Source of the DNA: Roseburia hominis
GTDB taxonomy: Bacteria > Bacillota_I > Bacilli_A > RFN20 > CAG-826
DNA length: 64,000 nucleotides
Assembly (NCBI GenBank): GCA_963642055.1
Contig: CAVIFQ010000005.1
Span: 9,633 to 73,632, forward strand
Direction: 5' to 3'
The translations under genes and the position numbers were made by a program. Position 1 is the first letter of the stretch, and the number at the start of each line of letters is the position of its first letter. Below, one piece after another: positions 6,958 to 59,436 of the stretch. Under the pieces are notes generated by a model. The model did no database searches, had not been told where the DNA came from, and saw only the letters and a program-made list of their open reading frames with translations.

Positions 6958-6990
6958 TAACCTGCATTTTTGAAATATCATCGTAGGTTA
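6958..6990. repeat. copy A of a 32-33-bp dyad element (TAACCTRC - AT-rich core - GTAGGTTA)
   Basis: Sequence taacctgcatttttgaaatatcatcgtaggtta overlaps the stop codon of the HipA-like gene. It has the same orientation as copies B and C upstream of that gene. Confidence 0.85.
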
Positions 6991-8291
6991 TCTTTGATAT
7001 TCTCTAGGCGCTTCTGCCCGTTTAAGAGGAAGGCGATGAGAGTAGTTTCATCGACTTTGATGGATATATCATCTAGTATCGCGCGGATATCCTTTTCGTC
7101 TATCTTCTTGATATACAAAGAAGCGAAAAGCTCGCGCGCCTTCGCGTCTTTCTTTAAGAAACGCACAAGATAATCAATCAACCCGTCGCTTTTTCTAGAG
7201 ACATCGTGCGGATAGCCGTTCACCGATAGAAGAGCGATGTTGTTATCGAAATTGGGGGATAAAGAGATGATGCGCCCACTCTTCCGATCGCGGAGGAACC
7301 CGCAGTTCTCGTTGTGGCGGTCGACATTATTGACGAGGCAGTCGAAATATAGAAGCTGTAGATACTCTTTCGTGATGTCTTCGTTGAGCTCTAGTAGGAG
7401 CGGAAAGACATGCTCATAGGTATCATCGTCTTTGCCAGCGAGCGAAGAAAGCGGCTCGAAATTGACTTCCGTCGCAAAGTTCTTCGTCTTGATGTAGCCA
7501 TCAATCAATTCATACTCGGCCGATTTTATTCCAAGAGCGATAGCCAAACGGGAGCAGAAATACTCCGAGAAGAGCTCCTTCTCATTCCCTTTCTTCACTA
7601 GATACCAACACCCATCGATTCTTTTCCAGCATTTCTCGTAGCTCCCTCCTAAAGTGAGCTCCGGGGTGAGTCGCGCTTTCGAAGGAAGATAGAAAACATC
7701 TCCTTTCAAAGCGAGACTCGCATATTCATCGGAGAAGATGGAGACATCTTTCCAGCGTAATTTGGATTTAAAGGGCTTGAACCAGTAATCGTCAGTCAAA
7801 GAGATGGCGTGGACCGCTAAAGAGGTCTCAGTTTCATTATATGAGCTGATACCGAGTATCTTCTTGAGGAGACGCGAGTTATGGCGGCTCGAGTCAATGC
7901 TCCTAGAAGAAAGCCAGCTCTCGAGATTCTTCGACTTCAATATAGATAAGGGGGCCTTTGCTTCATTGATATAGGTGAGTCCCCCTTTTTTGAAGCGCGC
8001 GACCACTTCGTCTTTCTCCATCACTTCTCCGTCGAAAGAAGAAGCGGATGGCGATAAAGGCGATAAAGGAGGCGAAGATGGTAAATCATTCAAAAGGCTC
8101 TCCAGTTCCTTTCGTCTCTCGATAGCAGCCTTTATTCGCCCCACTTCCGCTTCTTTGATGTATTCGCTTTTGACTTTATTTCCTTCGCGGCGCTGAAGAT
8201 AGTACCTCTTTTTGTTTCCGATCCTCTTGACGGAAATATAGCCTTCAGGGAGAGATGATAACTCTTTTAATATTGCATCCTTATCCATCAT
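6978..8291 (-). CDS. HipA-family serine/threonine kinase-like protein (toxin-type) with an extra ~70-aa N-terminal module
   Basis: The C-terminal half has the HipA_C-like catalytic loop LVNNVDRHNENCGFL and an upstream DDYWFKP motif. No HipB/XRE gene is adjacent. Confidence 0.65.
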   Translation of the reverse strand: MMDKDAILKELSSLPEGYISVKRIGNKKRYYLQRREGNKVKSEYIKEAEVGRIKAAIERRKELESLLNDLPSSPPLSPLSPSASSFDGEVMEKDEVVARFKKGGLTYINEAKAPLSILKSKNLESWLSSRSIDSSRHNSRLLKKILGISSYNETETSLAVHAISLTDDYWFKPFKSKLRWKDVSIFSDEYASLALKGDVFYLPSKARLTPELTLGGSYEKCWKRIDGCWYLVKKGNEKELFSEYFCSRLAIALGIKSAEYELIDGYIKTKNFATEVNFEPLSSLAGKDDDTYEHVFPLLLELNEDITKEYLQLLYFDCLVNNVDRHNENCGFLRDRKSGRIISLSPNFDNNIALLSVNGYPHDVSRKSDGLIDYLVRFLKKDAKARELFASLYIKKIDEKDIRAILDDISIKVDETTLIAFLLNGQKRLENIKDNLR

Positions 8292-8310
8292 GGAATAAGG
8301 ATATATTTTT

Positions 8311-8408
8311 TAACCTACATTTTCAAATATCATAGTAGGTTATCCGATGTTTCCTACCTTTTGTGTTTGATATTCGTAACCTACATTTTGAAATATCATC
8401 GTAGGTTA
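8311..8408. repeat. copies B (8311-8342) and C (8377-8408) of the 32-bp dyad element, 66 bp apart
   Basis: Copy B is taacctacattttcaaatatcatagtaggtta and copy C is taacctacattttgaaatatcatcgtaggtta. Copy B starts 20 nt upstream of the HipA-like ATG. Confidence 0.85.
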
Positions 8409-8506
8409 CACCCAGCAAAACCCCATAAAGGAAATCGCCGCCAGATTGACGGCGATCTAGTGGAGTCTATCGTATACAGCCTTAAGCGCCCAACGAAGCG
8501 ATTTAT

Positions 8507-10081
8507 CTATATTTCAACGTACTCAATCTTCGAGCGATGCTTCAGACTCTTCGAGTCGTAAGCGATGCCTAGGAGCATCACTTTGCCGTGATATCCATTG
8601 AGCGTCGAGACGTAGTTCCTGTCCTTGATCTGCTTTATGGCCTCATCCGGAGAGTGATCGACTTTCAGCTCGATGATAATCGGGATATAGCCGGGCGCTC
8701 TCGGTGTGAAGAGCAGATCGGCCCTGCCCGTGGGGCAGTTCGGCTCTGGCGTGATCTTGTAGCATTTTTCCGCGTATTTGTACGAGATCCTGACGATCAC
8801 CGCGAGCACGCCCTCGTCGTTCTTGTTGAAGGGGGTCACGAGGTCGGCGTGGTTCTTGTCGAAGGTCTCGTCGATGTAGTCGGTGTTGCCTTTGAGGGTC
8901 TCCTCGAGGAGTTTCTTCGACTCCTGCATCGGGTTGTAGACGTCGGGCCAGGGGATATCCTGGATGGCGTTCACGATCTCGCCTTCTATCTCCTTGTTCG
9001 GGATGAAGCATTTTTTGCTCTCTTCCTCATACCCGAGATATCCAAGGTGTATGAGGACGGTGAGGGCGGCGTCTTTGCTATTCACATTCGTTAGATCGTT
9101 TCGGAACAGCTCGACGTTGACTGGCGCCTTCTCGCCGGCAAGCATCTTTATGATCTCGCCTTTGAGCGCCCCTCCGTCATAGTTCATGTATTCCTTGACT
9201 GGATCGATGTTGCCGGTCGATGTCCAGTAATTCCCGCACAGATGGTCCGTCAAAGCCTCGACGACCGATTTCGGGTTGTAGATCTCGATTCCACTTAGCC
9301 TATATCCATCGTACCAGCTCTTTATCTCGGAGAAATCCATACTCCACTTCTCGCATAGCTCTTTCACCTCTCCCTCGGTGAAGCCGAAGGAGTCGGGGAT
9401 ATCCCGAGGGTTCAGCATGTTGTATTCCTTGAAGTTGTTGAGGTCGGATTCGGAGGAATACCTCTTGATCGGGAGGATGCCGGTCATGTAGACAAGGTCG
9501 AGATAGGATTGGGCGTCGCTCGATTTGAAAAGGGCGCTGAGGAGTTTCATGTAGGAGTCGCAGAGTTCTTTATTGCTCGCCTCTTTCCTGAAAAGAACGT
9601 CCCATTCGTCGATGAGGAAGATGAAGCGCTCCCCGGTCTCGTTGTTTATCCTGCTAAGGCATTCCATAATCGTTTTCTGGTTGCTCGTCAATATGCCGGG
9701 GAAGGCCTCGTCTAGATCCGATCTCACGAATCGCACCAGCTTGTTCAGGAAGGCTCTGCCGCTTCTGGAGTCGTTATAGATCGATGCCATGTCGATCCAT
9801 ATCACGTTGTGCTTGTTGAGATGGCTCTCGAAAGAGGGGTCATCGTATATTTTGAGCCCTTTGAATAGTTCTTTGGAGGAGCAGCCTTTCGAGTAGTAGG
9901 CGTTGAGCATGGAGAGGGCCATGCTTTTGCCGAAGCGTCGGGGGCGCGTCACGCACATGAATCTCTTCGCTTTGCCGATGGAATCGTTCGTCGCCTTGAT
10001 GAGCATCGATTTGTCCACATAGATATCGTCATGGACGTTATCCGAGAACGTTTTATTGCCCTTGTTGAGAAAAATTGGCAT
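8507..10081 (-). CDS. AAA-ATPase_like (PF09820-type) N-terminal domain fused to a PD-(D/E)XK nuclease domain (PDDEXK_9/DUF1703-type)
   Basis: N-terminal motif FMCVTRPRRFGKSMALSMLNAYYSKG. C-terminal motif GRADLLFTPR...IIIELKVD...AIKQIKDRNY. The family assignment is from memory of these motifs. Confidence 0.7.
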   Translation of the reverse strand: MPIFLNKGNKTFSDNVHDDIYVDKSMLIKATNDSIGKAKRFMCVTRPRRFGKSMALSMLNAYYSKGCSSKELFKGLKIYDDPSFESHLNKHNVIWIDMASIYNDSRSGRAFLNKLVRFVRSDLDEAFPGILTSNQKTIMECLSRINNETGERFIFLIDEWDVLFRKEASNKELCDSYMKLLSALFKSSDAQSYLDLVYMTGILPIKRYSSESDLNNFKEYNMLNPRDIPDSFGFTEGEVKELCEKWSMDFSEIKSWYDGYRLSGIEIYNPKSVVEALTDHLCGNYWTSTGNIDPVKEYMNYDGGALKGEIIKMLAGEKAPVNVELFRNDLTNVNSKDAALTVLIHLGYLGYEEESKKCFIPNKEIEGEIVNAIQDIPWPDVYNPMQESKKLLEETLKGNTDYIDETFDKNHADLVTPFNKNDEGVLAVIVRISYKYAEKCYKITPEPNCPTGRADLLFTPRAPGYIPIIIELKVDHSPDEAIKQIKDRNYVSTLNGYHGKVMLLGIAYDSKSLKHRSKIEYVEI

Positions 10082-13024: not shown

Positions 13025-14386
13025 TTACAAGCAGAAAGTCATGTAGACGGGAAGAGCGATCGTCCCGTCTATTTTTACGCTGAGGTTTTTCGGGTGAATG
13101 ATATAGCTAGCCATGATTCGATCCTTGAACTTGGCTTTAAAAGCATCGAGGGAGCTCGTTTTGTATGATTTCCCCGATTTGACCTCGATCGGGATGAGTT
13201 TTTTCGATACTTTGCTCCCGGAAGTCAAAAGAAAATCGATTTCGATGTCGTTCCGGTGCTTCTCGGGGGAATATTGGGTATAAAAATAGAGCTTGTAGCC
13301 ATTCGCGACGAGGGATTGAGCGACGACGTTCTCGAAAAACATGCCCTTGTTTATCGATAGTTTCCCAGATAAGAGCTCCTTGTGGTAAAGAGGGTCCGCC
13401 TTCTCGCCGTCGGAGAGAGAATGCGTCAAAAGAAGGCCGGTATCGCCCATGTAGCATTTGATGTAGTTCCTTTTCTCGTTGAGCGAGAGGCCGAAATTCG
13501 GATCGGCGCACATGAAGCATTCGTTGCAGATGAGTGAATCGGCGAGCCAAAAGAAAGTCTCTTCGTAAGCGATGGCTGTATCTTCTTCCCTGATCGATTT
13601 TATCCTGACCCTTTTCTCGTGCTGGGAGAGAAAAGAGGGCAACTGATCGAAAATGGAAAGGACTTTCGCTTTATATGAGCGATCGATTTTGCCGATATCG
13701 TCCCGATAAGCGTCCAAAATATCCCTTTTCTCACTCTCGCATGCCTCGAATTGCTTGTTGTTGGCGATGAACTCATCGACGGCTTTGGGCATCCCGCCGA
13801 CCAGCATATACTGCTTGAACAAGAACATCGCTCTTTTGTGAAGCGGGTCAAGCAATGGCTCTTTTTTGTTGAAGCAGTCCTTGATGTAGTCGGTTAATCC
13901 CTTTTCGTTCAGCGCCCAGGCGAATTCCTCGAAATCCATCGGATACATCCTGAGTTTTCTCTCTTCGGAGGGGATTAGGATATTTTTCGTGTTCTCTTTT
14001 ATCGAGATGAGAGAACCAGTCTCTATATAGTCGTAACGGCCATCTTTGACTAAATGCTTGATTGCCTCTCGCGCCCTCGGGAATGATTGGACCTCATCAA
14101 AGATAAGAAGGGATTCCCGAGGATACAAGGTTGTCTGATATTCCACCGAGAGGATCATGAAAAGGGAATCCAAGGAATCGAGCATATCGAGGAAGGCGTT
14201 TTTGATGGACGGCTTAGCCTTCGAGAAATCGATCAGGATATAGCTTCTGTAATTCTCTTTCGCAAACTGCTCAACGATGGTCGATTTGCCAATGCGCCTA
14301 GCCCCCTCTATCAAGATAGCTTTCTTCCCTTGGCACTCCTTTTTCCATTCGAGCAGTTTATCGTATACCTTTCTTTTGAAAATCAT
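13025..14386 (-). CDS. AAA_14 ATPase with DUF4143 C-terminal domain
   Basis: Walker A is GARRIGKST and Walker B-like is LLIFDEVQ. The architecture is typical of the widespread 'ATP-binding protein' family of unknown function. Confidence 0.75.
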   Translation of the reverse strand: MIFKRKVYDKLLEWKKECQGKKAILIEGARRIGKSTIVEQFAKENYRSYILIDFSKAKPSIKNAFLDMLDSLDSLFMILSVEYQTTLYPRESLLIFDEVQSFPRAREAIKHLVKDGRYDYIETGSLISIKENTKNILIPSEERKLRMYPMDFEEFAWALNEKGLTDYIKDCFNKKEPLLDPLHKRAMFLFKQYMLVGGMPKAVDEFIANNKQFEACESEKRDILDAYRDDIGKIDRSYKAKVLSIFDQLPSFLSQHEKRVRIKSIREEDTAIAYEETFFWLADSLICNECFMCADPNFGLSLNEKRNYIKCYMGDTGLLLTHSLSDGEKADPLYHKELLSGKLSINKGMFFENVVAQSLVANGYKLYFYTQYSPEKHRNDIEIDFLLTSGSKVSKKLIPIEVKSGKSYKTSSLDAFKAKFKDRIMASYIIHPKNLSVKIDGTIALPVYMTFCL

Positions 14387-14432: not shown

Positions 14433-14528
14433 AAAAGCGCAATCATCGAAAAGGCGATTTTGCCGGAAAAGCGCAATCATCGAAATGGCTATTTTGCCGG
14501 AAAAGCGCAATCACCGATATACCGATAT
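14433..14528. repeat. 34-bp tandem repeat x2.5, then CCGATAT x2
   Basis: aaaagcgcaatcatcgaaaaggcgattttgccgg is followed by aaaagcgcaatcatcgaaatggctattttgccgg and then aaaagcgcaatcaccgatataccgatat. It starts 47 nt upstream of the ATPase ATG (14386) and lies in the divergent spacer to the XRE gene. Confidence 0.9.
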
Positions 14529-14705
14529 GAGTAAAAAAAACGCCATTATAAAGAGATGAAATTGAGTCAAAAAATCGGATGGATTTTGATGATAAAACAC
14601 CCATTTTCAGGGTCGTCCATCTTCCGCTTGTATATAGGATAGGAAAGTGTTTTAATTTGGCCTCAGGCGAATTTTGCAAGTAATAGAACAGGGGGTGATT
14701 TTTCT

Positions 14706-15098
14706 ATGAATCGAGCAACTTTCATCGACAAAAGAAGGATTGGGGAATCCATCAAATCCCTGCGCAGAAAGAAGAGGCTCACCCAAGCTGATTTAGCGGA
14801 ACGCACTGGTTATAGCGTCCGCACCTTGCGCCGGATCGAGAAGGAGGGCACGGATAACCTCTCGATCATCCTCGTCTTCGCGGAAGCATTAAAAGTCTCT
14901 CCGCTCGACATCCTGAAAGGATGTTTTCTTTTTATACGGAAAAAAGCACTGGCGGGTTTCCCCGTGCAGCGCTTACTCCCATCTGTTATTCATGCACGTT
15001 CACGCCAGGCTGAGCCTATAAGAGCTACCCATAAGCTTCTGGAATGGGCTTTCGCCGCAACAACGGAAGGAACTCGATTATCCTTCAACTTTCAGTGA
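14706..15098 (+). CDS. XRE-family helix-turn-helix regulator; only the first ~72 aa are HTH-like
   Basis: LRRKKRLTQADLAERTGYSVRTLRRIEKEG...FAEALKVSPLDIL is a classic HTH_3 domain. The remaining 58 aa have no recognisable character and run antisense to the structured-RNA candidate. Confidence 0.65.
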   Translation: MNRATFIDKRRIGESIKSLRRKKRLTQADLAERTGYSVRTLRRIEKEGTDNLSIILVFAEALKVSPLDILKGCFLFIRKKALAGFPVQRLLPSVIHARSRQAEPIRATHKLLEWAFAATTEGTRLSFNFQ

Positions 15099-15473
15099 GC
15101 TTCAGCTATTCTTTTGGGGCCATTTTCAGTAGCCAATGACTCCGGCTTTCACCTACTCGCACCCGTCAAAGCAGTTATAGGGGGTTTCCCCTCATCAAGC
15201 CGCGCACTTCCTTTGGGAACGCAGATGCGCTTTTCCCAGAAGCGCATCATCTCGTGGGACATATTTCTATGGAGCCTCTTCTCGTGCCTGCTCGGACGGT
15301 CATTTACATAAAGAAGCGCGCTGCGCCATTAGCCAAAGCGGTCTTTTGATCCCGGGTACCTAATAGGTCTTGATCGCGAGATGATATCTCATCACGTCCT
15401 CTCTCTTGGTTACGCCCCAGCCATCAAGCAAGATGACTTCACTGGGTTCCAATGCCACTCTCCGAAGAGAGCA
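14940..15473 (-). ncRNA. candidate large structured non-coding RNA (~530 nt), family unassigned
   Basis: No minus-strand ORF of 60 aa or more. It starts after an extended -10 (TGTATAAT) and ends at a GAAA-capped hairpin plus T6. Many hairpins are capped by UUCG, GAAA or GAUA loops when read on the minus strand only. Confidence 0.35.
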
Positions 15474-15539: not shown

Positions 15540-16727
15540 TTACCTCGAGAGCCAATCGGCGATATCGATGATTCTGATGCCTTTATAGTCGTATTCCGGA
15601 TGGGAGGTTCTCGCTAAAAGGATGCGCGGATAGAGGTCTTTGATTTTTAGAAGTGGGTCCACTTCTCTCGCGAAGGTCTCTTCGCCTGATATATCATCGG
15701 AGACCTGAATGTAGATTCTCTCGTCTCTTTTTAGGGCCACGAAGTCGATTTCCTTTTTATAGAGCATCCCCACGTAGACCTCATACCCTCTTCGTAGTAA
15801 CTCAATGGCCACGATATTCTCGTAAACTCGCCCATAATCCATATTTCTGATGCCTAGAGTAGCGTATTTCAAGGAATGGTCGCAGAGATAGTATTTGTCA
15901 GAGGAGGTGAGATACTTCCTTCCCGCGAGGTCGTAACGCTTGATTTTATAGAAGAGGAAGGATTGGCATAGACTCTCAATATAGGAGCCGACGGTCTTAT
16001 CGTTCGTCTTCATCACGTTGCTACTCAAAACTTTCCTGATATTGCTGATGGAAGTAAGACTTGCGATATTATCGATCAAAAACGAAGAAATCTTCCTCAA
16101 TAGAACCTGATTCCTGATCCGTTTTCTCTTGATCAGATCCCTCTGGATGATCGTTTCATAAACCGTCGAGATATAGTCGTATTTCCTCTTTTCATTAGGA
16201 TATAGGTAGGAGCCAGGAAATCCCCCTTCATTGACGTAACGATCAAAGGAGAAGGAAGAAGGGGTAAGCTCATGGTAATTCATGAATTCCTTGTAGGAAA
16301 AAGGGAAAACCTTTATCTCGATCGCTCTACCCGTGAAAAGGGTCGCGAGGTCGCTGCTCAATAAAAACGCGTTTGAGCCCGTGAGGTATATATCGTAATT
16401 GCCCGTGGAGTGAAGGCTATTTATCGCCTTCTCGAAGTTCTCGCATAGCTCAACTTCGTCGATGAGCAGGAAATTCTCGCTCCCCTCTTTGTATCGCGAG
16501 ACGATGTATTCATATAATTTGTGGTAATCCTGCAGCTCCTCAAATTCGATTTTGTTGAAATCGATGCAGATGAGATTCGCATCTTGACGATTCTTCACGA
16601 GATACTCGAAAAACGATTCCATGAGAATCGATTTCCCTGAGCGTCGGACGCCCGTGATGACTTTGATATCCGGCGTCCCCATGAGTTCGATTAGTTCATT
16701 CAAATAAGGCCTTTCGATTATTTTCAT
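15540..16727 (-). CDS. AAA_14 ATPase with DUF4143 C-terminal domain (second paralog)
   Basis: Walker A is GVRRSGKS and Walker B-like is FLLIDEVE. Start set at the second ATG (8 nt after GGAGG); the track ORF starts 2 codons earlier. Confidence 0.75.
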   Translation of the reverse strand: MKIIERPYLNELIELMGTPDIKVITGVRRSGKSILMESFFEYLVKNRQDANLICIDFNKIEFEELQDYHKLYEYIVSRYKEGSENFLLIDEVELCENFEKAINSLHSTGNYDIYLTGSNAFLLSSDLATLFTGRAIEIKVFPFSYKEFMNYHELTPSSFSFDRYVNEGGFPGSYLYPNEKRKYDYISTVYETIIQRDLIKRKRIRNQVLLRKISSFLIDNIASLTSISNIRKVLSSNVMKTNDKTVGSYIESLCQSFLFYKIKRYDLAGRKYLTSSDKYYLCDHSLKYATLGIRNMDYGRVYENIVAIELLRRGYEVYVGMLYKKEIDFVALKRDERIYIQVSDDISGEETFAREVDPLLKIKDLYPRILLARTSHPEYDYKGIRIIDIADWLSR

Positions 16728-16767
16728 CCTCATATCCTCCTTTTTTCCTTAGAAGAGCGAATCAGCA

Positions 16768-16920
16768 TTCATTTTCTTGAACTATTTTTGATGTTTTATT
16801 TCACGATTTCAATAATTTTTCATTTTCTTGAAGTTTGTTCACTACTTTATTTCAATATTTTGAATATTTTTCATTTTATTGAAGTTTATAAAGCGTTTTA
16901 CTTCAAAAAAATGAATGTTT
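16768..16920. repeat. 51-bp tandem repeat x3 built around TTCATTTTCTTGAA
   Basis: TTCATTTT(C/A)TTGAA occurs at 16768, 16819 and 16870, giving an exact 51-bp period. An inverted partial copy, cttcaaaaaaatgaa, lies at ~16901. The array starts 41 nt upstream of the ATPase ATG. Confidence 0.85.
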
Positions 16921-17944: not shown

Positions 17945-20892
17945 AAGGTTTTGATCTCGAATGGACGGAAAGATAAAACGGAATCGGAGATATCTTCCTC
18001 TTTGATATCCTCCAAAAAGTTCACAAGCGAGATGCGTTTGCCCGCGAAACGGGTTTTGGAGAGATCAAGTTTTGCTTTCTTCCCGCTCCGCTCGTAGAGG
18101 CGGAGAATCATCCCCTCGCCCTTGTATTTGTTTTTAAGGCATGAGTATTCAAGATCGTCATTATGGAAGAGCTTTTCGCCTAGATTCATTTTCTTGCTTG
18201 AGGAAGTGAATTCACTGTTGAAGATATAGGCAAGTTGATCCACTTTGGCCTTCTTATCATCGCCAAAGTGCACGTAAAGAGCGTATTCGTAAGATGTTTC
18301 CCCGATATCGCTGTCGCGACAAGGATAAGAAGTTGAGCGCAATAAATCGAGCTCAAGGTCATCGCCTTTGATGTAGTAGCCGCATTTGGTCTTGTTGATT
18401 AAAGCGGCGCCCAAATCTTGTTTTGCATCATACACATCGACATATTGCTGCGCGCACACTTCATACTGTGCCTTTTCGTGAGTGGTGTCCTCTTTTCTAC
18501 TCCGTTTGAGTTTTCCGAACTGGATATCGCAGGTAGCGGAGGAAGAGGAGATGGCGAGATTGAAGTTGCTCCTCAGCATCCTCTTATTGTCTTTCCAGTC
18601 GACTTCGTGCTTGAAGGATATTACATCTTTGTCGGAGACTACCATGGTCTCTTTGACTCTCGATTCGTGGTAGCCATATTCGGACACTACTTCGTAAACG
18701 GGCCCATATTTCCTGATCTTTCTATTCAAAAGAGTCATATAGACCTCATCTTGGTTCCGGTAGCTCTCGCATATATTCCATCCATCGCCATGGTCGATAA
18801 ATACCCGTAACCTGTTGGCCCCTGCTTTCACCACTTCTTTCCCTAGCTTCTTCGCGTAGATTGAGGCGATATAGCCTTTTTCATCGAAGCGGATCTTGAA
18901 AGAAAGAGTCTCAATCGTATCCCCTTTAATTTCCCTTTCGTATGGGTAGGCGGCCTTTGCTTTCGCGCATTCAAAAGGAGACAAAGAGATAAGGTAATAC
19001 TTATTCTCTTCCTTGAAGAGCCTATTCACTTCGTAATTGAGGTGATTGAAATAGAAAGAGGAGGAAAGGTAGTCTTTCTGGTAACCTTTCACCGCTTTCT
19101 TATAGAGGTTATCAAGTTCACGTTCGATGGATAGATATTCCTCTTTCGATTCATCGTATACCCGTTTGATGGCGGAACCTGGCAAGATATCGTGGAATTC
19201 GAGCAATAAGACGCGGCGATAAAGAGCGTCGATCTCTGCATCGTAAGCGTGATTGCCCGTCAAGGCCAAGATGGTCTCTAAGCGCTTAATTTTCTCCTCC
19301 ATCTTGCGGTTATACTGCTTATTGAAGGAGATCGAGGTATAGGTGCCGGTGTGGTTTTCGAGATATAGCTCCCCTTGATAAGAAGGAAGCTCATCTTTGC
19401 TCTTTTCTAGAATGGAGAAGAAATTAAACACCGTATCGATCTCGACTTTGTTAAGGCCCATCAAAGAATCGATTCTTCTGATATTCTCAAGATGCTCTTC
19501 GCTCGGTCCTCCTCCCCCGTCGCCGATGCCGTAGATGAGGAGAGAATCCATGTTCTTCTTGTCGAGTTTGCTCAATCTCTTATTGCCAGCGAAAAGCGAT
19601 TTCGCGCTGGCGCCGGAATTGTATTCCCCCTCAAGCGGGAGATGGGTGAGCACCTCGCTCCCATCGATTCCTTTCCAAATAAAGGTATGGAAGGGGAAAT
19701 CCGTGAAGCGGTTCCAGGAGAGCTTGATGGTGAGGAAATAATCCATGCCGCCTTCTTTGATGAGCTGAGGGAGATTGCCGTTATAGCCAAAGGTATCGGG
19801 AAGCCAAAGATTATTCACGTAATGGGAGAAATTCTCGAGATAGAATTTCTGGCCGTACAGCATTTGCCTTGCAAGTTCCTCTTCCCCCGAGATATTGGTG
19901 TCGAATTCCACAAACGCCCCGCCGACGAGCTCAATCCGCCCTTCTTTCTCGTATTCTTTGAGTTTTTCAAAAAGAGCTGGGGCTTTTTCTTTAATCCAGA
20001 TGATCTGCTGAGGCTGCGAGATCACATAATGGAATTCGGGATAACGCTCCAAAAGGTAAAAAACGTTCGTGATAGTCCTGATGGCTTTTCTTTCGCTTTC
20101 TCTTACTGGCCAAAGCCATGCCAAATCAAGATGAGCATGCCCTACGGCGTGCATAATGGGCAGTTTATCGCTCGTATCCTCTTTAATAGAGAGGAGTCTA
20201 TCGAGAATCTCTCGAGACTCTCTCATCTTGTTTTTCCGGTCGTACCAGAATAAATCACGGACGGCGATCACGCCTTCATATAACGTTACAAAATACGGGC
20301 AAGTTGGCGAAATGTTCTCCAAAAGCGTCAAAAGCGCTTCATAATCGAAGCAAATGCGGCGCATTTCTTCGTCTCGTTCGACAAGAGCGATGCTTTTCAC
20401 GAGTCCTTTTTCTTGAATATTCCCAAACAGATCGTTATAGCCGCAGTCGAAATAGAGATCGAGTTTACCTTCTTCAACAAGGTCTTTGACCGGATAATAC
20501 TTTTTCCCCGGCTCGCCGAGGTTGCGGTCGAACACGCTCGAGCCGTTCGTGAAGCCCTTTACGGGCGTTCCGTCTTTATCGACGAGGAGCGCTTCCCCAT
20601 TGATATCGAATTCGATATAGGTATGCTCATTTATCAAGCATCCCTTTAAATCCTTATATACATGGAACCAGGCGCAGTCGAAAACCTCTTCCCCCCAGCT
20701 AGACTCTTTCTTTATCTTCTTGAAGCGGAGCTTGCTGATTTCTTGGAACGGCACTGGCTCTTTGGAGGTGGCCACTTCGTAATCCAGCTCGAGGATATGC
20801 GTATGTGACAGGGGGCGCATAATGCACTCGAGAATGTTTCTGGCGTCCCTTATTCCGTCTTTCTTATCGACATTGTTCGCTTCAAATTTCAT
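17926..20892 (-). CDS. GH38 alpha-mannosidase
   Basis: 988 aa with the GH38 N-terminal signature HAVGHAHLDLAWLWP, plus the central and C-terminal domains typical of bacterial cytosolic alpha-mannosidases. Confidence 0.9.
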   Translation of the reverse strand: MKFEANNVDKKDGIRDARNILECIMRPLSHTHILELDYEVATSKEPVPFQEISKLRFKKIKKESSWGEEVFDCAWFHVYKDLKGCLINEHTYIEFDINGEALLVDKDGTPVKGFTNGSSVFDRNLGEPGKKYYPVKDLVEEGKLDLYFDCGYNDLFGNIQEKGLVKSIALVERDEEMRRICFDYEALLTLLENISPTCPYFVTLYEGVIAVRDLFWYDRKNKMRESREILDRLLSIKEDTSDKLPIMHAVGHAHLDLAWLWPVRESERKAIRTITNVFYLLERYPEFHYVISQPQQIIWIKEKAPALFEKLKEYEKEGRIELVGGAFVEFDTNISGEEELARQMLYGQKFYLENFSHYVNNLWLPDTFGYNGNLPQLIKEGGMDYFLTIKLSWNRFTDFPFHTFIWKGIDGSEVLTHLPLEGEYNSGASAKSLFAGNKRLSKLDKKNMDSLLIYGIGDGGGGPSEEHLENIRRIDSLMGLNKVEIDTVFNFFSILEKSKDELPSYQGELYLENHTGTYTSISFNKQYNRKMEEKIKRLETILALTGNHAYDAEIDALYRRVLLLEFHDILPGSAIKRVYDESKEEYLSIERELDNLYKKAVKGYQKDYLSSSFYFNHLNYEVNRLFKEENKYYLISLSPFECAKAKAAYPYEREIKGDTIETLSFKIRFDEKGYIASIYAKKLGKEVVKAGANRLRVFIDHGDGWNICESYRNQDEVYMTLLNRKIRKYGPVYEVVSEYGYHESRVKETMVVSDKDVISFKHEVDWKDNKRMLRSNFNLAISSSSATCDIQFGKLKRSRKEDTTHEKAQYEVCAQQYVDVYDAKQDLGAALINKTKCGYYIKGDDLELDLLRSTSYPCRDSDIGETSYEYALYVHFGDDKKAKVDQLAYIFNSEFTSSSKKMNLGEKLFHNDDLEYSCLKNKYKGEGMILRLYERSGKKAKLDLSKTRFAGKRISLVNFLEDIKEEDISDSVLSFRPFEIKTLWIHED

Positions 20893-39045: not shown

Positions 39046-39201
39046 TTTTAAGATTCTGATAAAGCATTGACGACGTTATTGGCATTCAATCGACGACATT
39101 TCTCGTCAAAAAATGAATCAAGCCTGTGTTTTTTATAACCGTGAGAAAAACGAACGATTATCAAAATGTTTCAGTAGAGAATCTTCAGCAAAAGTTAATA
39201 A

Positions 39202-40608
39202 TCAACGCGAAATTCGCCAATATCCTCTTGTGCCACCGATTCTTTCAATGATCTTTTTGTCTTTCAAAGAGTCGAGCGCTCGTTGAATGGTTCTAGCCGA
39301 TCTGCCAGATTTCTCAGTGATTTCGTATTTAGTAATGCGCGGATTATCCTCTATTTCTTGAAGGATTATCTTTTCAAATTCGGACAACGAATCGGTGGCA
39401 TCGTTAGCGACATCATTGGTGATGTCATTGGCGACATCATTACTGGCGCCATCATCGACATCATTGGTGACATCGATAACGTCATTGGTGCCATTGTTGG
39501 TATTGTTGCGATAAAAAACAAACCAAAATCCATCGATTTCTTTTTCGTAACCGACCTTGACATTGCTCTTCTTACAATATGAATAAGTCTTCGAAAAGCC
39601 AGTGCCCCACTTCTCGATGGCTTTGCATCTAAATAAGACATCGCAAATCAATTCGTTTCTGACCTTGGAAGAGATGGCTTTGTTCACGAAATCCTCGGGG
39701 TTATAGCCATCGGGAAAAGCGCCTGGGTTATAAATTGCGATTCTATTTGGAAATATATCGATTTCGTTCTTGCTCCACCCTACGTAATTGGCGTGAGCAA
39801 AAGAATTGACGATGATCTCCCTTAAAGCGTCGAGCGGCACTTCAGGCACGTCAGTCCTATCGAAGCCCTTGATTTGGACGCTCCAGTGTATGTTCTTTTT
39901 GATGTATTTCTCAGATTCTTCGATCAAGCTGAAAATATTTCCTTTAATAGGCGATATATCGATAAATGTCCTCTTTTCATTGGTGGCGAAAACCGCCATT
40001 TTAAGCTCAATCGGCCCTTTATTCGAAAACAAGAAGCGGCCAGCGTTATTCAAATGGAATTTATCGGCCGCTAGTAAACCAAGTTGCTCAAGAAGAGCGG
40101 GCTTATCGTATTTCATGGTCCCGATTCTTCCGCATGAAATGGCTTTATCGAAGAATTTGGCCAATTGGTCTTCGTCAACATCATCGATGGTGTCTTCCGA
40201 TTTTTGCTTTTCCCAGGATTTATAATTCACTTCAATGATCATTCTGGTGAGCTCATCGGGAGTCATTTCCCTGCTTTCGTCAGAAACGCGGACATAGTAT
40301 CTCCCGAAAGCGGAATACGGCCTTTCGTTTCCTTCGAAGGTGACTTTGATGATTCTTGAATCAGGAACTTCTTCTATGACGGGGAAAATCTGTGGCTTGA
40401 GCTTTTCGAATATTCTTCTGGAGATATCTCTTTGGGTATCTTGGCCAATGTCGAAACCGATGGCATCGCCGTTATTTTTAACGCCAAAATACAAAATGCC
40501 GCGCCCATGCTTATTGAGAATGGCTGCTATATCGATGATTGAGTCATCGAGCTCATTCGTCGTTTCTTTGAATTCCAGTAATTCCGATTCTTTTCCAAGG
40601 TTCATCAT
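39202..40608 (-). CDS. AlbA_2 + HATPase_c_4-like + C-terminal wHTH protein (second paralog) with an (N-D-V/I-x)n linker
   Basis: N-terminus is ESELLEFKETTNELDD...GRGILYFGV. The middle is LREIIVNSFAHANY...IAIYNPGAF. The linker is NDVIDVTNDVDDGASNDVANDITNDVANDATDS. The C-terminus is a wHTH (ITEKSGRSARTIQRALDSLKDKKII). Confidence 0.75.
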   Translation of the reverse strand: MMNLGKESELLEFKETTNELDDSIIDIAAILNKHGRGILYFGVKNNGDAIGFDIGQDTQRDISRRIFEKLKPQIFPVIEEVPDSRIIKVTFEGNERPYSAFGRYYVRVSDESREMTPDELTRMIIEVNYKSWEKQKSEDTIDDVDEDQLAKFFDKAISCGRIGTMKYDKPALLEQLGLLAADKFHLNNAGRFLFSNKGPIELKMAVFATNEKRTFIDISPIKGNIFSLIEESEKYIKKNIHWSVQIKGFDRTDVPEVPLDALREIIVNSFAHANYVGWSKNEIDIFPNRIAIYNPGAFPDGYNPEDFVNKAISSKVRNELICDVLFRCKAIEKWGTGFSKTYSYCKKSNVKVGYEKEIDGFWFVFYRNNTNNGTNDVIDVTNDVDDGASNDVANDITNDVANDATDSLSEFEKIILQEIEDNPRITKYEITEKSGRSARTIQRALDSLKDKKIIERIGGTRGYWRISR

Positions 40609-40637
40609 GTTGCTTTACCCGCTCATATTATAGCAAG

Positions 40638-40781
40638 TGGCACAAATTTGGCACTAATAATGGCACTAATGGCACTAATGTGGCACCAATTTGGCACAAA
40701 TTTGGCACTAATAACACCAATTTGGCACTAATCGTGGCACTAATGTGGCACTAATGGCACTAATCATGGCATCAATGGCAC
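40638..40781 (-). repeat. array of 13 TGGCA(C/T) hexamers plus 1 degenerate copy, mean spacing 10.6 bp (TTAGTGCCA on the gene strand)
   Basis: Hexamer starts are 40638, 40649, 40661, 40670, 40681, 40692, 40703, (40713), 40723, 40735, 40746, 40755, 40767 and 40776. The array starts 30 nt upstream of the ATG and overlaps the -35 position of a TGCTATAAT promoter (-10 at 40627-40632). Confidence 0.9.
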
Positions 40782-40878
40782 AAATACCTTTTCGGCCATT
40801 TGTCATATCGGAAGATAGTTCCCTCATATCCCGATATCAAAAAAAGCCTGACCATTTGATCAAGCCTTTAAATTCTAT

Positions 40879-40952
40879 TGGTGCCCCGCCGCAGAGTCGA
40901 ACTACGGATTGGTCCTTACCATGGACCCGTTATACCGTTTAACTAGCGGGGC
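40879..40952 (-). tRNA. tRNA-Thr (anticodon GGU), CCA encoded
   Basis: Hand-folded cloverleaf. Acceptor is GCCCCGC/GCGGGGC. D arm is GTTA-AACGGTA-TAAC. Anticodon arm is GGTCC-AUGGUAA-GGACC. T arm is CGTAG-TTCGACT-CTGCG, then ACCA. Confidence 0.85.
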
Positions 40953-49041: not shown

Positions 49042-49284
49042 ACGCACCCTATTCTACTTGCCTATATCGCTACGCGATAGAAATTTTACGCTTTTAAAAA
49101 GCAAACGCATTAGAATTCGGAAGCGATTCAAAGCATCATCGATAAATGCAGAAATCGTTCCTGATGGAGATATTAGAAGCGCCACGAATACCCTATTTGT
49201 TGCCTAATTTGTCGCCGAAAATCTAGGTTGTTCTTGGCGCAAAACTCGCCAATTATTTCATTTTTACGGGCGCATATTTCAGGG

Positions 49285-49377
49285 CAAAATACAAATTTTC
49301 CATGTTTTTAAAGGCTCCCAAATACAAGTTTTTCATGTTTTTGGAGGCCTCCAAATACAAGTTTTTCATGTTTTTGG
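49285..49377. repeat. 33-bp tandem repeat x3 (CCAAATACAAGTTTTTCATGTTTTTGG)
   Basis: Units start at 49285 (diverged), 49318 and 49351. Each has CCAAA...TTTGG terminal dyads. The array is an orphan in the 564-bp spacer between the cls start and the SDR gene 3' end. Confidence 0.85.
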
Positions 49378-49565
49378 CGTTTATGGCGCTTCAGCTCTTT
49401 TACGAAAGGCGTATACAAAAATGGGGAAAATGCGTCACGAGACAAAATAAGATAATGGAGAAAATCCTCTCAAAACCGACTTTCTTTTGTGATTTTCGTA
49501 AAATAAGGAGATTTTGCTAAGAATATCAAAATCCCTACAAAAGCCCTTTGTTTTGCTCGTTAAGT

Positions 49566-50466: not shown

Positions 50467-51504
50467 TTATTTAAGTTCGGCCATTTCGAATAAACCGTTG
50501 ATATATGTGGCTCCTAGAGCCCTATCGTATAAGCCGTAGCCCGGCTTTTCGTCCTCTCCCCAGATGTTTCTTCCATGGTCTGGGCGGACGTAACTATTAA
50601 AACCATTATCGACGAGCGCCTTTACGATCGCCCCCATATTGAGGCTTCCGGAGAAGCTGTTATGCCCCACTTCCACGAAGGAGCCATCTTTACCTGTATA
50701 GAGGATATTCCTTAGATGCGCGAAATGGATTCTTCCGTCTTTCGCGTATTTCGCGGCCATTTTCACAAGGTCGTTTTTTCTGCTAGCTCCTAATGAGCCG
50801 GTACAGAAAGTGAGGCCGTTGCGCTTAGAAGGAATGGCAGAAAATAAACGATCGAGGTCTTCTTCCGAAGAAATGATGCGCGGAAGAGAGAAGATATCCC
50901 ATGGCGGATCGTCAGGATGAATAGCCATATTGATGCCCACTTCCTCGCATACCGGAATTATTTTATTTAAGAAATAAATGAGGTTATCGAATAACTGTTC
51001 ATGGCTGATATCTTTGTAAATCCCAAGCAAATTCTGCAATTCCCCTTCCGAATACGATTCATCCCACCCTGGGAGATGGAGCTTATTCGGGTCGACTTTC
51101 GCAAAATCGCGATAGGAATAGGAGAGCGAATTGCTCCCGTCAGGATTCTTATGATGCATATCGGTCCGCAGCCAATCGAAAACCGGCATGAAGTTGTAGC
51201 AGATTACTTTGACCCCGACTTTCGCGCATAAACGGATATTCTCCGCGTAATTTGCGATATACCTATCTCTATCCGGAGAACCATATTTGATCTCTTCAAC
51301 GACCGGGATCGATTCGATAACTTCCATCGTTAAGCCGTTTTTTATCGCCACTTCTTTTAAGGCCAATAAGGAACTCTCTTTCCACACTTCGCCCGGCTTC
51401 ACGTCATACGGGGCGGTCACGATCGATTTCATGTTGGGGATTTGGCGGATTTGTTCAAGAGTTATCACATCGTCGAATCCATACCATCTAAAAGAAAGCT
51501 TCAT
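50467..51504 (-). CDS. uxuA: mannonate dehydratase
   Basis: MKLSFRWYGFDDVITLEQIRQIP and the following sequence are the characteristic UxuA N-terminus; 345 aa. Confidence 0.9.
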   Translation of the reverse strand: MKLSFRWYGFDDVITLEQIRQIPNMKSIVTAPYDVKPGEVWKESSLLALKEVAIKNGLTMEVIESIPVVEEIKYGSPDRDRYIANYAENIRLCAKVGVKVICYNFMPVFDWLRTDMHHKNPDGSNSLSYSYRDFAKVDPNKLHLPGWDESYSEGELQNLLGIYKDISHEQLFDNLIYFLNKIIPVCEEVGINMAIHPDDPPWDIFSLPRIISSEEDLDRLFSAIPSKRNGLTFCTGSLGASRKNDLVKMAAKYAKDGRIHFAHLRNILYTGKDGSFVEVGHNSFSGSLNMGAIVKALVDNGFNSYVRPDHGRNIWGEDEKPGYGLYDRALGATYINGLFEMAELK

Positions 51505-51704
51505 CTTTTTTCCTCGCTTCCAGAGTAATTATGCGCGAAAACATTCTAAAAAGAATTGCAAAATCTATTCAAATACATTGCATTTCTTTTATTAGATTTC
51601 CGCTTCAAAGGGGCAAAATCAAAAATTATTGCAATGTTTAATCAAAAAAATGGCAATTGTTATTCCATCATTCCTTTCTTAGACTCTTATAGGCAGGAGG
51701 CAAT

Positions 51705-53108
51705 ATGAAATATCTAGACGAAGACTTTTTGCTTCAAAACTCATACGCGAAAACCTTATATCACGATTACGCCGAGAAAATGCCGATATTCGATTTCCAT
51801 AACCATCTTGAGGCGGAGGAAATCTATCTCGACAAGAAATTCTCTTCTATCACCAGTTTCTGGCTCATCGATGAAAATAAGCATGGCGACCATTATAAGT
51901 GGCGATTGATGCGGGCTAACGGGGTGGATGAAGCCTATATAACTGGCGATGCGCCCGAAAAAGACAAATTCATCAAATGGATGGAAACGCTCAGGGTGGC
52001 GTATGGAAATCCGCTTTATGAGTGGTCGTTGCTCGAATTAAAACGCTACTTCGGGTTGGACGATCCTCTCTCATATGAGGATTCAGAGCTTTATGACATC
52101 ATCAATGGAAAATTGGCTTCCTTAAGCGTCCGCTCTTTGTTGCACAAATCTAACGTCAAAGTGCTAGCCACTACCAATGACCCAACGGATGATCTGCGCT
52201 TCCACCACCTCTTGAAAGAGGATCCTATTAACGACATCGAAGTCGTGGCCACTTATCGTCCCGATAAGATGGCCAACATCAACGATCCTTCTTATTCCTT
52301 ATATATAAAGAGGTTAGGAGAGAGTGCCAATATCGTCATCGATAGTTACGATAAACTTCTCGAAGCCGCGGAAAGAAGGCTTCTCTATTTCAAAGAGTGC
52401 GGCACTTTCATCAGCGATCACTCCATCGAATCGCTCCTCTTCCGCCCTTTGAATAAAGAAGAGAAAAATAAGATTTTCAAGAAAGCCATCGATAAGCAAA
52501 ATCTCGATGAAGAAGAGGCACTCCTCTTTAAGAGCAATCTAATCGTCGATCTCGCTAGAGTATACAAAAAGCACGATATTGCGATGCAGCTTCACTTAAA
52601 AGCCTCAAGGAACAATTCGAAGAGGATGTTCGCCAAACTTGGTCCCGATTCCGGATTCGATGCCATCAATGGCGGCGATTCCATCATCGGGCTCAGCAAG
52701 ATGTTCACGCTGCTTGATGAAACGGAGGAACTGCCAAAAACAATCCTCTATTCCTTGGACCAGAATGACTGGGCCGCTTTAACGGCTCTTGCTTACTCTT
52801 TCCAAGAAAAAGGAATCAAGGGCAAGATGCAGCTAGGTGCTGCCTGGTGGTTCTTCGATAATGCTGAAGGGATGAAACGTCAGCTCTCCACCATCAGCAA
52901 TATCGGACTGCTGTCCTCTTTCATCGGCATGGTCACCGATTCGAGAAGCTTCCTCAGTTTCACGCGCCACGAATATTTCCGCCGCGTGCTCTGCTCTTAT
53001 TTGGGTGAGCTCATCGAAAGCGGCCATATCCCCTTCGATAAAGAGGGCCTAGGGAAAATGATCCAAGGCATTTGCTACAATAACGCCAAAACCTATTTCG
53101 GGAGATAA
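51705..53108 (+). CDS. uxaC: glucuronate isomerase
   Basis: YLDEDFLLQNSYAKTLYHDYAEKMPIFDFHNHL is the characteristic UxaC N-terminus; 467 aa. Confidence 0.9.
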   Translation: MKYLDEDFLLQNSYAKTLYHDYAEKMPIFDFHNHLEAEEIYLDKKFSSITSFWLIDENKHGDHYKWRLMRANGVDEAYITGDAPEKDKFIKWMETLRVAYGNPLYEWSLLELKRYFGLDDPLSYEDSELYDIINGKLASLSVRSLLHKSNVKVLATTNDPTDDLRFHHLLKEDPINDIEVVATYRPDKMANINDPSYSLYIKRLGESANIVIDSYDKLLEAAERRLLYFKECGTFISDHSIESLLFRPLNKEEKNKIFKKAIDKQNLDEEEALLFKSNLIVDLARVYKKHDIAMQLHLKASRNNSKRMFAKLGPDSGFDAINGGDSIIGLSKMFTLLDETEELPKTILYSLDQNDWAALTALAYSFQEKGIKGKMQLGAAWWFFDNAEGMKRQLSTISNIGLLSSFIGMVTDSRSFLSFTRHEYFRRVLCSYLGELIESGHIPFDKEGLGKMIQGICYNNAKTYFGR

Positions 53109-55526: not shown

Positions 55527-55705
55527 AGGCAAAGTATATAGCGTTCTCCCACAAAAAGCGCTGAAACCGCGATGAATTTCTAATCTCTCATATCATCGTC
55601 AATGCCTATTTGCGTTGTATTTCTAGGCTCAAGTAACCAATAGTTCTCGTTCGAATCATGCCTATGATCGCTTATACGATACTTAACGATTTCGAATAAT
55701 CGATA

Positions 55706-55812
55706 AAACTGTTCACTCTCACTGAACACTTTCGCGATTTTGCCAAAAAACTGTTCACTGCCACTGAACACTTTTGCGGTCTATCGTGAAACTGTTCACT
55801 AGGACTGAACAA
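55706..55812. repeat. 41-42-bp tandem repeat x3 with dyad core AAACTGTTCACT-NNN-ACTGAACA
   Basis: Cores at 55706, 55748 and 55789. The array lies 180-290 bp upstream of the AraC gene start, in a 394-bp ORF-free spacer. Confidence 0.85.
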
Positions 55813-55920
55813 TATTCATCTTTTATCAGATACGATTAAAGGACCGGTAAAGGACAACCATCTAAATGTGCTCACACTTAAAAAGGAGCGATAATCCCGC
55901 TCCTTTTCAATGCTGTTTGC

Positions 55921-58803: not shown

Positions 58804-59005
58804 AATTTGCTCCTTTAAATAAATAAAACACCCTTCACGAAGGAACGCTTGCGCGCGGTACCATCCTTCTTCACCTATGGGTGCTCTCTTCTCTTCTTAA
58901 CGCGAAGACGCGACGGGGATTATCCGCATTGTCGTAGGAGTGGCGCGCCCAAAAATCTGGGCTTAGTTCCTACCGCCGAAAGTTTATCACGCGCGCAAGG
59001 AAAGA
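58804..59005 (-). promoter_or_regulatory. T-box riboswitch leader of alaS
   Basis: The minus strand carries the T-box sequence GAAGGAUGGUACCGCG (complement of ~58853-58870). The terminator is CACCC...GAAGGA-loop-UCCUUC...GGGUG plus UUUUAUUU, just before the RBS. A GC-rich Stem I base is present. The specifier codon is not confidently assigned. Confidence 0.6.
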
Positions 59006-59076
59006 CAAGAAAGAGCGGAGATATCGCCGCTCATAACCAGCAAGCAAATTGACGGAGAAGAGCTCATTTAACACCC

Positions 59077-59113
59077 AAAAAAAGCCGTTTTCTGAAATTT
59101 AAACGGCTTTTTG
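59077..59113. terminator. bidirectional terminator
   Basis: AAAAAAA-GCCGTTT-N10-AAACGGC-TTTTT. Confidence 0.55.
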
Positions 59114-59276
59114 CGGGGATATCAGTTATTTGTGCTTGATGGAAATGATAATGGAGAGAGTTCAATCCCTTCTTCCATCTTCTTTAAATGCAATTTGCAC
59201 AGTGTCCATGGGAAAGTTAGGATTTATCGATATTTTTGATCAGATGACTGATGATTTTATACAAATTTCTATTCTA

Positions 59277-59436
59277 TTCGTAAAATGTTATTCGATACGC
59301 ATTACGATTTCGTAAAATGCGATTCATTACACAATACGTATTCGTAAAATGTAATCCATTACACATTACGATTTCGTAAAATGTGATTTGATGCACATTA
59401 CGTGTTCGTAAAATGTGATTTTTGACATGTTACGAA
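59277..59436. repeat. 32-bp tandem repeat x5, each unit an imperfect dyad TTCGTAAAATG-N~12-ACATTACGA
   Basis: TTCGTAAAATG occurs at 59277, 59309, 59341, 59373 and 59405, an exact 32-bp period. The array is an orphan in a ~700-bp ORF-free spacer (59114-59811). Confidence 0.9.

Follow-up and report, generated by a model that had tools for sequence, protein, structure and literature searches.

Within a 64,000-nucleotide stretch of Roseburia hominis DNA (contig CAVIFQ010000005.1, positions 9,633 to 73,632; hereafter the window), five accessory genes on the minus strand each carry a tandem repeat array immediately upstream of the start codon. They encode a HipA-like kinase, two AAA_14/DUF4143 ATPases and two AlbA_2 (Schlafen-type) proteins. 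We consider it probable, on comparative sequence evidence, that these five gene-adjacent arrays are the cognate operators of their own proteins, giving negative autoregulation of self-contained cassettes. Binding, repression and cooperativity are what we infer; array anatomy, enrichment upstream of family genes, promoter register, co-variation with the protein and stability between samples are the observations set out below. The genes and arrays concerned are listed here by their positions in the window (wHTH, winged helix-turn-helix).

6978-8291, minus strand: HipA-like kinase, with HipA_C; relatives have an N-terminal DUF6788 region.
8311-8408, minus strand: HipA-like array, two 32-bp palindromes TAACCTAC-N16-GTAGGTTA at a spacing of 66 bp, ending 20 nt before the start codon.
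13025-14386, minus strand: DUF4143 ATPase 1, AAA_14 plus DUF4143.
14433-14534, minus strand: DUF4143 ATPase 1 array, three units of 34 bp, each with the imperfect palindrome GCGnTTTT-CCGG-AAAAnCGC, 47 nt upstream of the start.
15540-16733 (probable start 16727), minus strand: DUF4143 ATPase 2, with AAA+, lid, winged-helix and PD-(D/E)xK-like parts.
16768-16920, minus strand: DUF4143 ATPase 2 array, three units of 51 bp, each with the half-site ACTTCAAGAAAATGAA (gene strand), plus one inverted copy upstream; 35 nt from the start codon.
35676-37103, minus strand: AlbA_2 protein 1, with AlbA_2, a weak HATPase_c_4 and a C-terminal MarR/HTH_24 wHTH.
37123-37230, minus strand: AlbA_2 protein 1 array, five to six units of 21 bp, TTTAGTTGTATAGTT (gene strand), ending 20 nt before the start.
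39202-40608, minus strand: AlbA_2 protein 2, with a Schlafen/AlbA_2 nuclease domain, HATPase_c_4 and a C-terminal MarR-like wHTH (residues ~405-465, encoded at ~39202-39400), from Pfam and PDB profiles.
40637-40786, minus strand: AlbA_2 protein 2 array, about 13-14 units ATTAGTGCCA (gene strand) with a mean period of ~10.6 bp, 29 nt from the start codon and overlapping the promoter.
40627-40654, minus strand: predicted sigma-70 promoter of AlbA_2 protein 2, with a GTGCCA repeat unit as -35, a 16-nt spacer holding the last unit, and TG-TATAAT.

All nine repeat sets reported for the window in the initial annotation, the five above and four orphan arrays described later, were located with their reported periods using Tandem Repeats Finder (TRF) and a repeat-family search. 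Among gaps of at least 60 nt (period at least 8, score at least 60), a TRF array was present in 6 of 21, against a mean of 0.01 in 100 dinucleotide shuffles, far beyond chance. The five arrays do lie near the minus-strand starts of NTPase/kinase genes, at 20, 47, 35, 20 and 29 nt, and the accessory families agree with Pfam (HipA_C; two AAA_14 plus DUF4143; two AlbA_2 plus HATPase_c_4 plus wHTH). The accompanying claim that housekeeping and sugar-catabolic genes of the window lack an adjacent array was also borne out, with no strong array within 200 nt of any other start. The units of the HipA-like and DUF4143 arrays, and of the orphan arrays at 38980, 55705 and 59275, are tandemly repeated palindromes and not plain direct repeats. 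The suggestion that unit periods track the helical turn of DNA holds within the window, where the nine periods fall close to multiples of 10.5 bp (post-hoc p=0.003, n=9), but not as a rule of the families, since arrays across the AlbA_2 family have a modal period of 12 bp and a median of 3 sites.

The evidence is most extensive for the AlbA_2 family. The two window proteins are 22% identical and belong to separate subfamilies. Their Schlafen/AlbA_2 domains (PF04326) score 55.9 and 64.6 bits (Pfam cut-off 25.3), and the N-terminal residues E7, E12 and K14 of this domain are invariant in 36 homologs. AlbA_2 protein 2 exceeds the Pfam cut-off for both PF13749 (59 bits) and HTH_24 (28.6 bits), and its wHTH matches 3lmm and MarR-family structures in a PDB profile search. 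In AlbA_2 protein 1, HATPase_c_4 scores 24.2 against a cut-off of 26, and the helix-turn-helix (HTH) families are likewise slightly under cut-off. By domain make-up both proteins fall in the pSlfn-HisKinase-HTH class, which PMC13056530 (Nat Microbiol 2026) gives as the second commonest bacterial Schlafen class (19.2%). The same paper describes bacterial Schlafens as anti-phage defence proteins. The HTH class does not appear among the architectures assayed there, and text searches of the paper returned nothing on upstream repeats, on binding to DNA or on autoregulation.

The array of AlbA_2 protein 2 runs into its promoter. As had been proposed, a GTGCCA hexamer occupies the -35 position; it is followed by 16 nt and TG-TATAAT, giving 10 of 12 consensus matches with the TG present. 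This promoter, like all others in the analysis, is a consensus prediction. The cores of the repeat units end at -6, -17, -29 and so on to -144 relative to TATAAT. The first orthologs to be found lie in three unrelated contexts, after tRNA-Thr, AbiEii and Fic, and in each of them a series of ATTGGTGACAT-type units runs up to a TATAAT box.

Scanning species-representative genomes yielded 79 AlbA_2 loci (individual loci are cited by L numbers) from Bacteroidaceae, Bacilli, Clostridia, Succinivibrionaceae, Spirochaetales, Planctomycetaceae and Methanocorpusculum. Orthologs of AlbA_2 protein 2 at 40-91% identity occur in many unrelated contexts with the upstream array nearly always kept, and the homology among them begins at the array and ends at the stop codon. 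At nearly all loci an AT-rich stretch joined to a hexamer occurs as 2-13 or more direct repeats; across loci the hexamer is GTGACA, GGGACA, GTGCCA, ATGCCA, CCGCCA or TAGCCA. Orthologs of one subfamily (L011-L089, 40-75% identity) are spread over no fewer than seven bacterial lineages as well as the archaeon Methanocorpusculum, almost all of them in material from gut or rumen, which implies frequent horizontal transfer. A mobile cassette with terminal repeats was considered and rejected, as the orthologs share no sequence beyond the stop codon.

The initial annotation called for a test of enrichment upstream of family genes, and the arrays are enriched there. A TRF score of at least 50 was obtained upstream of 23 of 63 AlbA_2-family genes (36.5%) compared with 14 of 420 other 5' regions from the same loci (3.3%; odds ratio 16.7, p=1.4e-13). 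With the threshold lowered to 30 the figures are 63.5% and 15%. Several of the positive control regions belong to divergent neighbours of family genes, with which they have the array in common. Among the control genes, strong unrelated tandem repeats were seen in L087, where a 60-bp repeat (~8376-8552) lies upstream of a GMP-synthase-like gene, and in L084, where a CGGCAGTTTGGCCG repeat (~18510-18700) precedes a 587-aa open reading frame (ORF) resembling a secreted protein.

The arrays are also stable. Samples that encode an identical protein have identical arrays (L005-L008, four samples; L003/L004, two samples), and a 98%-identical relative of DUF4143 ATPase 2 from another sample, L171, has the same array as the window. 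Hence the arrays do not vary freely where the protein is retained, which the initial annotation would have counted against its proposal, and free slippage is disfavoured. The changes in copy number among closely related samples that would mark a contingency (phase-variable) locus were not seen in these comparisons (L005-L008; L003/L004; window and L171). Paralogs within one genome or contig have different array units (window; L003; L005). Locus L005 also holds an AAA-ATPase_like/PDDEXK_9 gene (279-1946, minus strand) with about eight TGTTGTGAA repeats upstream, a fourth accessory-ATPase family of like design.

These observations bear on whether the arrays are simply neutral slipped-strand expansions in AT-rich intergenic DNA, without function. 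Repeats upstream of unrelated control genes (the 3.3% at a TRF score of at least 50) and the wide differences in copy number between lineages are what neutral expansion would give. It does not account for a 10- to 17-fold enrichment, a design kept across phyla at 40% protein identity, a fixed register to the -10 element, co-variation with the protein, or identical arrays in independent samples. We strongly disfavour this explanation and regard it as extremely unlikely.

The register to the promoter is seen throughout the family. Measured from the -10 hexamer, the repeat cores of 74 AlbA_2 loci have their ends at -6/-8, -18, -30, -42/-43 and -54, a 12-bp ladder. The copy at -18 fills the -35 position; alternatively, a separate TTGAT or TTGACA lies between two units. 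An arrangement of this kind might reflect promoter architecture independent of any protein, with tandem -35-like or -10-like elements or AT-rich UP-like tracts, and with slippage tuning expression through multiple or stronger promoters. The units are AT-rich, GTGACA and GTGCCA resemble TTGACA and place one copy at -35, and in the 37123 array the TGTATAGT unit looks like an extended -10. However, many lineages have cores unlike sigma-70 elements (CCGCCA, TAGCCA, GCGACA) together with a separate TTGAT or TTGACA as -35, the core shifts in step with wHTH residues, and copy number is constant among samples with identical proteins. An explanation from promoter architecture is therefore very unlikely.

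Co-variation between array and protein is the observation that indirectly supports the binding and repression of each promoter by its own product. In the AlbA_2 family the core GTGACA pairs with the recognition helix RT[IV]QR, GGGACA with KTVQR, CCGCCA/TCGCCA with ERT[IV]SR, and TAGCCA/TGGCCA with QRTITR. Within the GGGACA clade, L030 has gone back to R and has GGTGACA repeats. The closest comparison is between the window and L002, a syntenic ortholog with 95% identity. The window array has about 14 TTAGTGCCA units whereas that of L002 has 4-5 TTGGTGACA units, and of the 382 N-terminal residues 7 are different in the two proteins, as against 16 of 65 in the wHTH (Fisher p=8e-10). Some 1.1 kb of DNA, mostly at 92-100% identity, lies between the array and the end of the gene that encodes the wHTH.

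The same comparison gave some further observations on AlbA_2 protein 2. A coding repeat at 39396-39485 has a 12-nt unit that encodes a (N/D)DV(A/T) linker before the wHTH, and this linker forms an 18-aa length difference from L002. The antisense of this coding repeat is TTGGTGACATCATT, the operator unit of the L002 and L011 orthologs. The ~95% identity of the window with L002 stops exactly at the stop codon of AlbA_2 protein 2 (39202; also 40879-40952). The variable island at 35676-40608 adjoins tRNA-Thr.

The DUF4143 ATPases show a similar arrangement built from palindromes. Both window proteins match PADLOC PDC-S01 (ATPase 1, E=2e-104; ATPase 2, E=4e-145) and exceed the Pfam cut-offs for AAA_14 and DUF4143. 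PDC systems are defence candidates only, and among 6530 rumen genomes no single defence-candidate locus was more frequent than AAA_14/DUF4143 (PDC-S01) (PMC13356809). When ATPase 2 was modelled with AlphaFold (predicted confidence, pLDDT, 82.5), its AAA+ core was joined by a lid, by a winged helix spanning residues ~209-283 and by a C-terminal PD-(D/E)xK-like domain; the top Foldseek match of the model in the PDB is Orc1/Cdc6 on origin DNA (2qby), followed by STAND NTPases.

A metagenome scan gave 80 loci with relatives of ATPase 2. Upstream they carry a palindrome of 34-40 bp, such as CTATTTCCCAAAAT-N12-ATTTTGGGAAATAG; by inspection, its loop or right arm has TTGATT, with TATAAT coming next. 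Frequently a second copy separates the -10 from the start codon. The 16768 array, a putative triplicated palindromic operator of DUF4143 ATPase 2, is homologous to the TTTCGAGAAAAT palindromes of two relatives at 74-75% identity (L172, L173). An AT-rich inverted repeat with an arm of at least 11 was present upstream of 43% of 56 DUF4143 genes compared with 6.8% of 250 controls drawn from the same loci (odds ratio 10, p=3e-10), and about half of the control positives are divergent neighbours sharing one palindrome. A further private array was found at another DUF4143 gene, L180.

Here too the sites co-vary with the protein. The half-site TTTCCCAAAA (variable bases CCC) pairs with NHKT, TTTCGCAAAA (CGC) with NDKT, CTTTCAAAA (CTTTC) with NHVT and TTCCTCAAAA (CCTC) with TNKT. 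In the model, the co-varying residues sit directly before the predicted recognition helix of the winged helix.

On the other side of the 14433 array, opposite DUF4143 ATPase 1, is a gene that the initial annotation did not contain.

14706 to ~14930, plus strand: unannotated Xre-type HTH ORF (…LTQADLAERTGYSVRTLRRIEKEG…), divergent from DUF4143 ATPase 1; its 3' limit is uncertain, as the frame enters a ROOL RNA on the opposite strand.

The ROOL RNA itself (Rfam RF03087) is full-length, lies at 14934-15470 on the minus strand between the two DUF4143 ATPase genes, and scores 174 bits against a gathering score of 99.

The Xre-type ORF raises the question of a separate trans-acting regulator, this protein or a host factor, as the one that binds the arrays. 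The 3x34 array lies between this ORF and the divergent ATPase 1 gene, defence islands are often under separate repressors of the BrxR and CapW type, and the orphan arrays are repeat sets with no adjacent wHTH gene. Yet no conserved neighbouring regulator accompanies the AlbA_2, DUF4143-2 or HipA-like cassettes at ~160 loci in unrelated contexts, and the sequence of the sites follows the recognition-helix residues of the adjacent protein itself. A regulator acting in trans on these arrays therefore seems decidedly unlikely.

For the HipA-like kinase, HipA_C scores 45 bits (Pfam cut-off 30.5), and D324, R325, H326 and N329 of the catalytic DRHxxN loop are invariant in 36 homologs. No ORF for a HipB/HipS-type partner is present at 8292-8506, from the array to the upstream convergent gene; the downstream 172-aa ORF (6307-6825) was not examined. 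The relatives likewise stand alone. The palindrome TAACCTA-N14-16-TAGGTTA is retained in relatives at 71% and 43% identity. In those at 43% (L174, L175) its right arm and TATAAT overlap, and L175 has TTGATT in the loop.

Collectively, the portability of the cassettes, the enrichment, the register, the co-variation and the stability of the arrays lend comparative support to the proposal of the initial annotation that each array is a multi-site target of the adjacent protein's wHTH, acting in autoregulation. The repeated sites overlap the predicted -35 and -10 elements, as is typical of an autoregulated gene. In the mechanism that we propose, the operator sites would be built into the sigma-70-type promoter of each gene. 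AlbA_2 genes would have head-to-tail units, repeating every 12 bp, that reach into and through the -35 and the spacer; at the DUF4143 and HipA-like genes a palindrome, often duplicated or triplicated, would surround the -35 and abut the -10. The candidate binders are the C-terminal MarR-like wHTH of the Schlafen-HATPase_c_4 protein, the internal winged helix of the AAA_14/DUF4143 ATPase and, presumably, the N-terminal DUF6788 region of the HipA-like protein; the domain is a Pfam wHTH in the first case, modelled in the second and presumed in the third. Protein on the sites would exclude RNA polymerase and keep the gene at a low, self-limited level, with the number of sites setting cooperativity. 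Array, promoter and gene would travel jointly between genomes as one cassette and, as paralogs of one genome have different site sequences, their circuits would run without cross-talk.

Several points weigh against autoregulation through cognate operators. About three sites suffice for simple repression, so the 13-14 at AlbA_2 protein 2 go beyond what it accounts for. The comparative evidence does not extend to AlbA_2 protein 1 or DUF4143 ATPase 1, as scans of viral contigs with these two proteins and with the HipA-like protein returned no relatives. The DNA-binding domain of the HipA-like protein is presumed, the Xre-type HTH ORF flanking the 14433 array is a possible alternative binder, and the four orphan arrays fall outside the operator explanation. 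The co-variation with recognition helices that the initial annotation anticipated stands as specific switches in the AlbA_2 and DUF4143 families, with qualifications. L099 and L126 have nearly identical TTAGCCAAAA palindromes and promoters but different winged helices (KIHHTT versus EITRKT), and are either an exception to the co-variation or the product of a chimeric contig. The wHTH divergence between the window and L002 adjoins a synteny breakpoint, so recombination could have swapped the 3' end, although the 5' array would also have had to change to match. Mutual information between repeat class and the columns of the protein alignment was high along the whole protein and hence uninformative, because repeat classes follow phylogeny. 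The case for co-variation thus rests on the specific switches and not on a phylogeny-corrected statistic.

The large copy numbers lead to a further alternative, in which the arrays are assembly platforms on which the ATPase or nuclease is stored inactive, in an ATP-dependent manner, as a multi-copy oligomer or filament, autoregulation being a by-product. Infection or a change in DNA state would then free or activate the effector, making the wHTH-array pair a sensor and safety catch; the initial annotation had raised both filament nucleation and DNA-state sensing. Arrays of 8-14 units occur in several lineages (window, L052, L066, L053, L030), far above what promoter occlusion needs, and on a platform they would represent expanded storage capacity. 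The proteins have GHKL-like or AAA+ modules, with the DUF4143 model resembling Orc1/Cdc6 on origin DNA and STAND NTPases. The families are linked to defence, the bacterial Schlafens through PMC13056530 and DUF4143 through its PDC-S01 match, and the window periods lie near helical-turn multiples. Against this, the family median of ~3 sites is typical of an ordinary operator, and a modal period of 12 bp would not put adjacent protomers on one face of the DNA. Large arrays are sporadic and not conserved, and beyond their size and the ATPase folds we found nothing that specifically supports a platform. We think storage on the arrays unlikely, and return to operators as the reading that we favour.

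The four orphan arrays of the window are the following.

38980-39054, no strand assigned: two 35-nt palindromes TTTTGGAAT(N)AATTCCAAAA at a spacing of 40 bp.
49287-49385, no strand assigned: three units of 33 bp, ~240 nt upstream of a phospholipase D (PLD)/cardiolipin-synthase-like gene.
55705-55819, no strand assigned: three 32-nt units, palindromes TGTTCA-N7-TGAACA at a spacing of 41-42 bp, 170-290 nt upstream of an AraC-family gene.
59275-59434, no strand assigned: 4.5 units of 32 bp, each with the palindrome TCGTAAAATGTG...CACATTACGA, in a 1008-nt gap upstream of alaS.

The suggestion that these arrays had lost partner genes did not hold up. A tblastn search of the long spacers with ~500 family proteins found neither a partner gene nor a decayed remnant at any of the four, and its sole significant match was the Xre-type HTH ORF at 14706. 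The 38980 array lies 190-265 nt upstream of a 436-aa gene (37480-38790) that has no Pfam, NCBIfam or PADLOC match; a hidden relationship of this gene to DUF4143 was rejected (hhalign probability 0.1%). Exact matches to the 38980 palindrome fall within coding sequences only, mostly in one recurring phage gene, and we take them to be chance. Exact-pattern scans with the 55705 and 59275 units gave no match.

Other features were noted at or near these sites. A 38-aa ORF (49253-49369, minus strand) is in phase with the 33-nt repeat at 11 codons per unit, and within the units of the 49287 array a GGAGG-like (or GGGAG) motif precedes an ATG by 11 nt. A bidirectional terminator-like hairpin at 59078-59113 lies ~160 nt from the 59275 array, which could therefore drive a minus-strand transcript of ~190 nt upstream of alaS. 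The divergent promoter region at 51505-51704, between genes at 50467-51504 (minus strand) and 51705-53108 (plus strand), has four dispersed ATTGCA(A/T)-like sites, one of which is TGGCAAT; these are probably ordinary regulator sites, and the initial annotation does not list them.

If the operator reading is right, all three families, the third being the stand-alone HipA-like kinases, would have sequence-specific DNA-binding activity with an identifiable target and a readable recognition code of helix residue versus operator base. These families are very abundant and poorly understood in gut and rumen microbes. The reading would also explain how potentially toxic single-gene modules are expressed safely after transfer between phyla, as they would bring their own promoter and repressor sites. 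On a practical level, clones made with '100-150 bp of native promoter' would keep or truncate the array depending on the lineage.

The initial annotation knew of no described system with this organization. The protein families and some of the array sizes do appear to be new, but the logic matches that of hipBA, the pho boxes of PhoB and ParR-parC. In hipBA, four TATCC-N8-GGATA operators give the same picture of repeated, often palindromic sites over the -35 and -10 of the binder's gene, and the HipA-like gene of the window has two such palindromes, ending 20 nt before its start codon. The window differs in having no separate HipB/antitoxin gene upstream of the HipA-like gene. Here the effector (kinase, nuclease or ATPase) has the presumed DNA-binding module as part of the same chain, which would therefore have both roles, and the number of sites reaches 13-14.

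Pho boxes, the targets of PhoB/OmpR-type winged-helix regulators, consist of direct repeats, one every 11 bp, in place of the -35. They share with the AlbA_2 arrays a wHTH binder, head-to-tail repeats of ~11-12 bp with a conserved hexamer and an AT-rich spacer, and a location at -35 whose distance from the -10 is constant. Unlike PhoB, the AlbA_2 proteins have no receiver domain, their wHTH is MarR/Lrp-like by profile, and the predicted effect is repression of their own gene rather than activation of a regulon.

ParR-parC and iterons likewise have at least 10 tandem units, of ~11 bp (parC) or ~22 bp (iterons), around or across the promoter of the binder's own operon, with cooperative, autorepressing binding and a sequence private to each element. 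The window loci differ in being chromosomal and single-gene, with a usual copy number of 3, and their binders are a nuclease-ATPase and an AAA+ protein, not a ribbon-helix-helix ParR or a Rep protein with two winged helices. No partition (ParM/ParA) or replication initiator genes were found near the arrays, whose neighbours are tRNA-Thr, housekeeping genes and other accessory genes.

Archaeal Orc1/Cdc6 with its ORB repeats resembles the modelled DUF4143 ATPase in having AAA+ followed by a winged helix and a gene beside inverted-repeat sites. In contrast, the DUF4143 hosts are bacterial with many paralogs per genome, the protein has an extra PD-(D/E)xK-like domain, and its sites enclose a promoter and not a DNA-unwinding element. 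Overall the regulatory logic is familiar, whereas the protein families involved, the combination of regulator and effector in a single protein and the expansions to 8-14 sites are new as far as literature searches could tell.

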